The notes under the pieces were generated by a model. That model was not told the DNA's origin. It worked only from the letters and a program-made list of their open reading frames with translations, and did no database searches. DNA of 23,972 nucleotides from a virus (lineage: Duplodnaviria; Heunggongvirae; Uroviricota; Caudoviricetes), in IMG/VR virus record IMGVR_UViG_2534681933_000011. One strand, 5' to 3'. Positions 1,777 to 2,422 of the stretch are shown here, in pieces; within the stretch, counting starts at the first letter, position 1; each line of letters begins with the position of its first letter. The position numbers and the translations under genes are program-made.

Positions 1777-2307
1777 ATGGCCGTGCTTCGTACGTTACCG
1801 GGCAGAATCAAAACTCTGAATACCCGGCGGGTGAATGTCCTGAAGGGTGAACAGCGTCGGGTCAGTGGCAGTGCCCGGGTTTCCCTCAAGCGTCGTATCT
1901 GGCTGAGGGATGCCGGACAGTGCTGTCTCTGTGGGCGTGTGGTTGACCTTTGTGACAGTGAACTCGATCACCGCATTGCACTTCAGTTCGGTGGTGGTAA
2001 TGAGGAGACGAATCTCTGGACGCTCTGTACCGAATGCCATCGCCAGAAGTCAGTCAGTGAAACGGCGAGTGGTATGCCGGACCCGACGCTGCCGGAGGTC
2101 ATGGCAGGGCAGACGATATCATCGGACTGTGACCCGCCCCGGGGGGGGGATCATCCGGCGAAAAAAACGATCGCCCCGGACACCGCCCCCCGTCTCATGC
2201 AGAGAAAAAATTCCTGTTTCAGGCCAGTTAACATGTTAACTGGCTGCCCGGGCATTTTTTCGGTTTTTATCTTTATTATTCAGTTTGTTGTGCGAAAAAA
2301 ATGTTAA
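1777..2307 (+). CDS. HNH endonuclease, packaging-associated; the C-terminal extent is uncertain
   Basis: HNH motif CCLCGRVVDLCDSELDHRIALQFGGGNEETNLWTLCTECH; position immediately upstream of terS/terL as in HK97-type cos phages. The open frame runs through a G8 homopolymer and the TGTTAAC repeat array, giving a low-complexity tail, so the true stop may lie upstream. Confidence 0.65.
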   Translation: MAVLRTLPGRIKTLNTRRVNVLKGEQRRVSGSARVSLKRRIWLRDAGQCCLCGRVVDLCDSELDHRIALQFGGGNEETNLWTLCTECHRQKSVSETASGMPDPTLPEVMAGQTISSDCDPPRGGDHPAKKTIAPDTAPRLMQRKNSCFRPVNMLTGCPGIFSVFIFIIQFVVRKKC

Positions 2308-2360
2308 CTGGCTTTTTCAGCAAATGTTAACCAGGCAGCAGTTAACATTTGCGGCATGAG
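2130..2360. promoter_or_regulatory. Candidate cos / terminase recognition region: G8 tract plus an array of TGTTAAC-core repeats
   Basis: ccccgggggggg tract at about 2140-2153; ATGTTAACTGGC occurs twice as direct repeats (about 2233 and 2301); a 12-bp perfect inverted repeat GCAAATGTTAAC-9 bp-GTTAACATTTGC at about 2320-2352; all within 100 bp upstream of terS. Confidence 0.35.
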
Positions 2361-2422
2361 ACGCCGGGAAAAATGGGCTGAACCATACCCGGCTGAGTGC
2401 GTTATGGACCCGGGAGGAGGCT

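Follow-up and report, generated by a model that had tools for sequence, protein, structure and literature searches.

A probable HK97-type cos region with a phased G-run and a repeated putative terminase motif between the HNH and terS genes of a Shiga toxin-type prophage

Layout of the HNH–terS interval

The DNA analysed here is a 23,972-bp stretch of a Caudoviricetes genome (IMG/VR record IMGVR_UViG_2534681933_000011), referred to in its whole length as the window, and our subject is the interval in which its HNH endonuclease gene is followed by the genes for the small (terS) and large (terL) terminase, an order established by a Pfam search of the window proteins. Region 1700–3000 is 94–97% identical to more than 90 prophage records of the Shiga toxin (Stx) types Stx1a, Stx2a and Stx2c, among them the Stx phages 1717, YYZ-2008, BP-4795 and 2851 of the genus Pankowvirus: by sequence, the window is a Pankowvirus-like Stx-type lambdoid prophage. 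A preliminary description, made from the letters alone, had proposed a cohesive-end site (cos) and terminase-binding repeats within 2130–2420. We consider it probable that 2133–2360 is a cos region of the HK97 type (HNH-assisted), composed of a cleavage module, an array that would confer TerS specificity and a G-run that may serve as end signal. The cos end of one phage of this group (Lys8385Vzw) has already been published; new relative to the literature searched are the fixed G-run, the array of repeats with its specificity classes, and satellites that share the cos. The features are collected in Table 1, where numbers with a plus sign count from the predicted top-strand cut.

Table 1. Features in and around the HNH–terS interval of the window
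Feature	Position	Strand	Details
HNH endonuclease gene, frameshifted allele	1777..2307	+	176 aa; Pfam HNH at residues 49–92
10-bp deletion site	2092..2101	+	CCGGAGGTGT-CCGGAGGTCA in relatives, a single copy in the window
Ancestral HNH stop codon TGA	2130..2132	+	out of frame in the window
G-run	2141..2149	+	G9 here, G5–G11 in relatives; preceded by CCCC at 2137–2140
Spacer between G-run and overhang	2150..2183	+	A7 tract at 2161–2167 and CGATCGCCCCGGACAC
cosN, putative 10-nt 3′ cohesive end CGCCCCCCGT	2184..2193	+	predicted top-strand cut between 2193 and 2194
Conserved left-end segment CTCATGCAGAGAAAAAATTCC	2194..2214	+	+1 to +21, A6 tract at +12 to +17
cosB-like site 1, 22-bp palindrome with two GTTAAC cores	2223..2244		cores at +34 to +47
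T/A-rich spacer	2245..2298		T tracts phased at ~10 bp
cosB-like site 2, AAATGTTAACTGGC	2299..2312	+	core invariant in relatives
cosB-like sites 3 and 4, inverted pair GCAAATGTTAAC-N9-GTTAACATTTGC	2320..2352		exact
terS	2423..2986	+	187 aa, GTG start; Terminase_2 PF03592; Shine-Dalgarno GGGAGGAGG at 2412–2420
terL	2983..4644	+	553 aa, HK97-type large terminase; PF03354 TerL_ATPase and PF20441 TerL_nuclease

The cut site

The Stx1 phage Lys8385Vzw was reported to be of the cos type, its 3′ cohesive ends being CGCCCCCCCT, as determined with PhageTerm (PMC7946995). Its record MT225100 is 96.9% identical to the window at cos; the first base of the record corresponds to window position 2194, and its last bases (...GGACACCGCCCCCCCT) run up to the equivalent of 2193. 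A more distant phage leads to the same position: the record of Burkholderia phage Bcep176, whose TerS is 35.7% identical to the TerS of the window, carries an identical 10 nt at both ends (CGCACGTTCC in window orientation), and this 10-mer stands directly 5′ of CTCACGCGCAGAAAAT (CTCACGC; CTCACGCGCAG), a position homologous to window 2184–2193. By homology to the mapped ends of these relatives, a cos with a 10-nt 3′ overhang between HNH and terS is supported for the window, inside the interval first proposed; as judged by this alignment, the cut falls in the C-run 2184–2193 and not in the G-run.

The CGCCCCCCGT allele is common to phage 1717 and 35 fetched loci, and the exact 33-nt cosN core was found in 35 fetched loci. 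Positions 2187 and 2192 are polymorphic among relatives; the overhang is predicted to read CGCCCCCC(G/C)T. The cos of SfI, TGCCCGCCCC, was mapped by run-off sequencing (PMC3636060), and the ends of SfI, HK97 and HK022 have the order seen in the window: a G-run, then 31–35 bp, then a C-rich 10-mer. Downstream of the cut, conservation is deepest from +1 to +21, a segment that includes the A6 tract and is common to all TerS specificity classes and to the satellites described below. The records of phi330 and vB_CB2a were rejected as end evidence, as both begin at arbitrary points near terS/terL, and no termini for this phage group were found in the papers on phi330 and on seven Stx phages.

A G-run at a fixed distance upstream of the cut

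The preliminary description had listed a G8 tract, and the homopolymer turned out to be a G9. A single G8 run in the window is not beyond chance; the significance of the G-run comes only from comparison with relatives. There, the distance from the 3′ end of the G-run to the predicted cut is 43–45 bp in 21 lineages of at least 12 genera, among them Serratia, Erwinia, Pantoea, Citrobacter, Kluyvera and Atlantibacter, and it holds even where the intervening 25–30 bp are unrelated. The window has 44 bp and Bcep176 43 bp; HK97 and HK022 both have 42 bp, and SfV has 41 bp. The run itself lies 35–43 bp upstream of the overhang, and its length varies on the left side. The sequence of the spacer that follows is conserved in the Enterobacterales Stx-type lineages and in the satellites, and its length is kept where the sequence diverges. 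On the strength of these alignments, the G-run is a conserved, phased accessory element of cos, and an element at about −45 seems to be general to HNH-associated cos sites. Its position recalls cosQ of phage lambda, on the side that enters the capsid last, and by analogy it may have a comparable role.

The G-run could itself be taken for the cleavage site or cohesive end, being GC-rich, partly palindromic (CCCCGGGG) and placed directly after the HNH stop. We give this reading almost no credence, as the mapped ends of Lys8385Vzw and Bcep176 lie 43–44 bp downstream of the run and a length polymorphism from G5 to G11 is ill-suited to a defined cohesive end; a cohesive end at the G-run is ruled out by the end mapping in these relatives.

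In HK97 (39000–39732) and HK022 a G9–10 run is followed by ATCAAATC, with 42 bp left to the right genome end. The corresponding sequence of SfV, GGGGAGGGGCGGG-TCAAATC, stops 41 bp short of the end of the cos 10-mer. No description of the G-run or of the repeat array was found in the literature searched on cosB or cosQ together with HK97 or HNH, including the HK97 papers. In the PPompW prophages (LC567822), ISEc20, an IS110-family insertion sequence (IS), abuts the G-run at the equivalent of window ~2145. The order there is Q, tRNAs, ISEc20, truncated cos and terS; a complete cos has been lost from these prophages, which lack HNH, the lysis genes and the left-hand portion of cos.

The repeat array downstream of the cut

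The heptamer TGTTAAC occurs six times in the window against 1.72 expected, and five of the six copies fall within 121 bp (2227–2347). Two direct copies of ATGTTAACTGGC and a perfect 12-bp inverted repeat with a 9-bp spacer had been noted before, and both are exact, at 2233–2244 and 2301–2312 and at 2320–2331 and 2341–2352, respectively. A third ATGTTAACTGGC copy, on the minus strand at 2223–2234, had been missed; because of it, 2223–2244 forms a perfect 22-bp palindrome (GCCAGTTAACA|TGTTAACTGGC). Altogether, five GTTAAC-core sites stand between nick and terS, from +34 to +153 in an array that extends from +30 to +159. The T/A-rich spacer between the first and second sites is possibly a bend.

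In order to describe conservation, 67 unique close relatives from IMG/VR were aligned. The non-coding stretch 2194–2422 has 7.9% variable columns, compared with 39% in the HNH gene and 14.7% in terS, and the GTTAAC cores are invariant in the 67 relatives with the exception of one singleton. Absence of the repeats from related phages, which the preliminary description had named as an observation that would speak against its proposal, is thus not what we found.

More distant relatives hint at a possible origin of the motif. In FSL SP-016 and 20 further Enterobacterales relatives (TerS identity 32–47%) terS starts 37 nt after the cut, and its first codons, ATG/GTG-TTA-AC, are the motif, embedded in GTAAACATGTTAAC. 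The palindrome of the window sits exactly at the position of this terS start (ATGTTAAC), and in the Stx-type lineage ~190 extra bp hold three further copies, with a new start for terS. The copies could be neutral relics, left when the ancestral terS start 37 nt past the cut was tandemly duplicated and a new start arose 190 bp downstream. Agreeing with this are the terS starts at the position of the first palindrome in the 21 distant relatives, the short open reading frame (ORF) beginning with MLT that each copy opens, and an alignment in register of 2324–2375 with the terS 5′ end at 2423–2478, which is marginal, given that 8–117 of 500 shuffles reach its score, the number varying with scoring scheme and pairing. 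However, both flanking genes vary more than the spacer, and in the lineages described below all copies changed their core together while the intervening sequence diverged; moreover, an origin by duplication is compatible with a present function. Functionless relics are therefore unlikely in our view, although duplication of the terS 5′ end, for all that the alignment is only marginal, is a plausible origin of the repeats.

The plus-strand ATGTTAAC copies open their MLT ORFs at 2233–2307, 2301–2330 and 2324–2359, which encode a 24-aa hydrophobic peptide (MLTGCPGIFSVFIFIIQFVVRKKC), 9 aa and 11 aa; probably these ORFs are a side effect of a motif that was the ancestral start of terS. In the Burkholderia phages vB_CB2a and Bcep176 (L263–L266) a module CTCACGCGCAGAAAATTT...GTTAATGGCTTTAACAGCG persists at 35% TerS identity and includes GTTAA/TTAAC half-sites that straddle the terS start codon. 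Its persistence there indicates that the element is old.

Motif class and the TerS recognition helix

The TerS product matches Terminase_2 with 31.8 bits (cut-off 26.1), and its residues 13–57 align to the DNA-binding domain of the SF6 small terminase (2CMP/4ZC3/3ZQP; profile E = 5e-4 to 2e-3). This alignment places residues 30–40 in the recognition helix, a region that reads SAKTARIKGSQL. The suggestion of HK97-type packaging in the preliminary description hence needs dividing: the HNH/cos/terS layout is as it stated, but TerS is of the SF6/SPP1-type Terminase_2 family and not a homolog of HK97 gp1. A profile-based TerS scan of genome contigs yielded matches; a scan with a single TerS gave none.

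Every lineage whose helix reads KTAR(V/I)K has GTTAAC cores only (45 unique combinations, plus L256–L259), and the cores are kept even where the flanks have diverged (L157, L256). Every lineage with KSARCK (TerS variants P0021, P0023, P0011 and P0035) carries GTTTAY or GTAAAC at all homologous sites and no GTTAAC. In this class, with the helix region S(E/A)KSARCKGSQL, the architecture is that of the window and every core is changed: the palindrome is TATAAACATGTTTATA, the single site is AAATGTTTATACC (core of site 2 changed to AAATGTTTATACCC) and the inverted pair is AAATGTTTAC-AGGGCAGCG-GTAAACATTT with its N9 spacer. Between the sites, the sequence has diverged to ~50–60% identity. In the recombinant P0023, the middle and the C-terminus match the GTTAAC-class proteins, and the motif follows the N-terminal domain. 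In these comparisons, motif class tracks the TerS recognition helix as well as the swap of the N-terminal domain in satellites. Since motif and TerS N-terminus are closely linked on the DNA, their co-occurrence by itself is weak evidence, and the argument rests on the same base change at all five sites. Conservation, this concerted change and the satellites together suggest that the repeats are most likely a cosB-like TerS-binding array, which supports the earlier proposal that the small terminase reads repeats near cos.

The palindromes might instead be RNA or DNA hairpins that serve, for example, in termination, attenuation or translational control in the terS leader, and not protein sites. 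The stems at 2223–2244 and 2320–2352 are perfect and both appear in the minimum-free-energy fold, both arms change together in SARC-class lineages so that pairing is kept, and a terminator-like hairpin with a T-run lies at 2248–2263. This hairpin is within chance expectation, however, as are sigma-70 promoter and intrinsic terminator signals at the cos region, none of which exceed chance, and the fold of the region is weak (z = −1.88). The third, unpaired copy changes its core too, the direct repeats of the satellites cannot pair, and distant relatives carry one site only. In addition, late lambdoid transcription is Q-antiterminated across cos. We regard hairpins as very unlikely to explain the repeats.

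Within TerS, the linker (residues ~60–110, window 2600–2750) is hypervariable among close relatives and the flanking domains are conserved. Linker variants were noted in P0002, which has a duplicated DKPRRREAAAIPQPD unit, in P0027 and in P0041; TerS forms of 138–139 aa have large linker deletions.

Satellite-like elements that share the cos

A second kind of E. coli locus shares the cos of these phages. Such loci (L161, L162 and L243–L252 of P0064 type; L260 and L261 of P0054 type) encode a TerS, a 307-aa capsid-family protein and, in addition, a D5_N/DUF5906/Pox_D5 primase or AlpA, have no terL, and adjoin phoQ or an Ag43-like autotransporter gene. G-run, spacer and cosN core are all retained in them, and in the P0064 set a 21-nt core, GGACACCGCCCCCCGTCTCAT, is an exact match to the window. 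Right after the A-tract they diverge and carry two to four copies of AAAAGTTACAC (GTTACAC repeats), the first at +33. Their TerS is chimeric, with an N-terminal helix-turn-helix of its own and a C-terminal half like phage TerS. Judged by their sequences, these elements are probably parasites of Pankowvirus-like phages of the phage-inducible chromosomal island (PICI) type.

Lambda-type PICIs have the same cosN and cosQ and a different cosB, and EcCICFT073, which uses Rpp, likewise keeps a helper-type cut site with a different cosB relative to lambda and phi80 (PMC6739421, PMC6092414). The capsid-family protein recalls Ccm of SaPIbov5 (PMC5052747). In contrast to EcCICFT073, where the Rpp adaptor redirects packaging, the present satellites would do so by their own chimeric TerS, and they would target an HNH/HK97-type cos, whereas EcCICFT073 targets the lambda type.

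The satellites also bear on the possibility that another protein, a host nucleoid protein or a phage regulator such as the DUF3950 product, binds the repeats, TerS itself reading the A-tract at +1 to +21. This segment is indeed the deepest conserved downstream of the cut, HK97 TerS binds +15 to +29 with the A-tract included, and the DUF3950 gene lies just upstream. However, +1 to +17 is common to elements with differing TerS N-terminal domains and so cannot supply TerS specificity; motif class tracks the TerS recognition helix, and the satellites carry their own repeats alongside their own TerS. No match to the integration host factor (IHF) consensus WATCAANNNNTTR, with up to one mismatch, was found in 2130–2420. 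We judge this reading to be just as improbable as the hairpins, and retain TerS as the probable ligand of the array.

The HNH gene and its read-through tail

The HNH open frame had been described as running through the cos elements into an odd C-terminus, and this frame was confirmed. Its catalytic motif is intact, and the frame shifts after residue 107. Alignment with relatives shows that one CCGGAGGTNN repeat has been lost at ~2092; owing to this 10-bp deletion the frame passes the old stop, crosses cos and ends at 2307, and a 69-aa read-through tail stands in for the last 14 ancestral residues. In 30 relatives HNH is 121 aa long with its stop at the equivalent of 2130–2132, as expected from the suggestion that the true stop lies upstream, and comparison with the homologs revealed no conserved extension to 2307. 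Slippage in the homopolymer, which had been offered as the alternative source of the frameshift, was rejected: the G-run sits past the ancestral stop and the deletion lies upstream of it. The identical junction was found in only 4 distinct IMG/VR contigs (fetched as 6 loci), compared with 144 loci that have both copies. In the deletion allele, the product is 176, 153 or 151 aa long as set by the length of the G-run, and the tail is thus not a conserved domain. The cos DNA in the prophage with the frameshifted HNH is a common allele.

Proposed mechanism and points against it

The cleavage module would consist of the G-run that ends 44 bp before the cut, the spacer of fixed length, the C-rich 10-nt segment 2184–2193 and the A-tract segment from +1 to +21. 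We propose that TerL, helped by HNH, makes staggered nicks 10 nt apart at 2184–2193 and leaves 10-nt 3′ ends. A TerS oligomer would bind the five GTTAAC sites just inside the left end through its N-terminal helix-turn-helix, bring the HK97-type TerL to the correct DNA and direct packaging towards terS and terL. The run would end at the next cos, met from the HNH/G-run side, where the G-run may act like lambda cosQ. The dependence on HNH and the role of the G-run are inferred by analogy.

Several observations count against this interpretation. The cut mapping in this phage group consists of one PhageTerm result, and the Bcep176 ends are of uncertain derivation. Less than 200 bp separates the repeats from the TerS N-terminus, so that their covariation could partly reflect linkage; it comes from about four SARC-class protein variants. 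A change on both arms of the inverted repeats is compatible with the hairpin model as well. Distant relatives have a single site that overlaps the terS start, and extra copies are not universally required. HK97 TerS, which belongs to a different fold family, binds +15 to +29, so that here TerS could actually read the A-tract segment at +1 to +21. Finally, the cos of this prophage may no longer serve: its HNH is frameshifted, and terL is separated from the capsid gene by an IS.

We hold a wider scheme more tentatively, giving it a little less than an even chance: HK97, HK022, SfV, the Pankowviruses and Bcep176 would share an ancient cleavage module, a G-run set ~41–45 bp ahead of the cut and then a C-rich 10-nt 3′ overhang, to which exchangeable, TerS-specific cosB arrays are attached, and satellites would exploit this modularity. 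Under such a scheme the G-run could signal termination in the manner of cosQ or offer a docking site to HNH or TerL, and E. coli phages appear, from the alignments, to have switched from GTTAAC to GTTTAC by one or two helix substitutions (T32S, V/I35C), all five sites changing together.

Comparison with HK97, lambda and SF6/SPP1

The ends of HK97 are 10-nt 3′ overhangs; its TerS binds just downstream of the cut, and the gp74 HNH protein stimulates cos cleavage (PMC11331095, PMC9410871). In HK97 as in the window, HNH is located at the right genome end, and cos lies between HNH and terS. The TerL proteins are homologous (terL product and HK97 gp2: 23% identity over 461 aa, E = 1e-11, BLASTP), and TerS, which acts downstream of the cut in HK97, probably does so here. 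The right end of HK97 reads G9-ATCA, ~32 bp and ACCGCCGCC, with 39 of 65 aligned columns identical to the window. The TerS proteins differ, however: that of the window has no detectable kinship to gp1 (BLASTP E = 1.1). HK97 has one 15-bp TerS site at +15 to +29 and terS at +50, whereas the window has five repeated sites over +30 to +159 and terS at +230.

The cos of lambda consists of cosQ, cosN and a cosB with R3, I1, R2 and R1, where gpNu1 sites are repeated (PMC6739421, PMC6092414). It resembles the window in its upstream end-of-genome element, nicking site and downstream repeat array between nick and terS, and also in an A/T-rich segment between the first and second sites. Yet proteins, sequences and site motifs are unrelated, and lambda has 12-nt 5′ overhangs and does not require an HNH protein; where lambda uses an IHF site, the window has a T-rich segment with no IHF consensus.

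With the G1P-type small terminases of SF6/SPP1, the window TerS shares a homologous N-terminal helix-turn-helix domain and the Pfam family Terminase_2. Those phages, however, are pac (headful) phages, whereas here such a TerS is found together with an HK97-type TerL, an HNH protein and what is predicted to be a precise cos cut.

In O157 and other Shiga toxin-producing E. coli (STEC), stx1 and stx2c are borne by Pankowvirus-type prophages, and knowledge of the exact cut site and terminase signal helps to judge which of these prophages are still transmissible; in the present one cos is intact, yet HNH is frameshifted and an IS lies between terL and the capsid gene. It also helps to predict which satellites or cos-bearing plasmids could be mobilised by Pankowvirus-type phages. 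The two natural TerS/cosB classes, one motif base and two helix residues apart, offer a system for the way in which SF6-type TerS reads DNA, and the G-run at ~−45, present in HK97 too, points to a cos element yet to be studied in a phage that serves as a structural model. For cos packaging in general the picture stays as it was, with one family filled in.

Neighbouring genes

Downstream of terL, a single 645-aa ORF (5969–7906) encodes a prohead protease (Peptidase_S78) fused to an HK97-fold major capsid protein. There is no portal gene between terL and this ORF, and a 454-aa ORF at 8118–9482 comes after it. The 60-bp gap between terL and the protease-capsid ORF is interrupted by an IS3-family element at ~4655–5912 (orfA 4727–5038, orfB to ~5904), past which the sequence of the relatives resumes at window 5913; the insertion is probably polar on the late operon.

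Upstream of the packaging genes, the DUF3950 (Arc/MetJ-like) gene at 1511–1735 lies on the minus strand, divergent from HNH. Between the lysis cassette and the packaging genes, a homolog of PerC-family regulators is encoded at 1115–1429 on the plus strand; PerC homologs in STEC prophages are potential virulence regulators.

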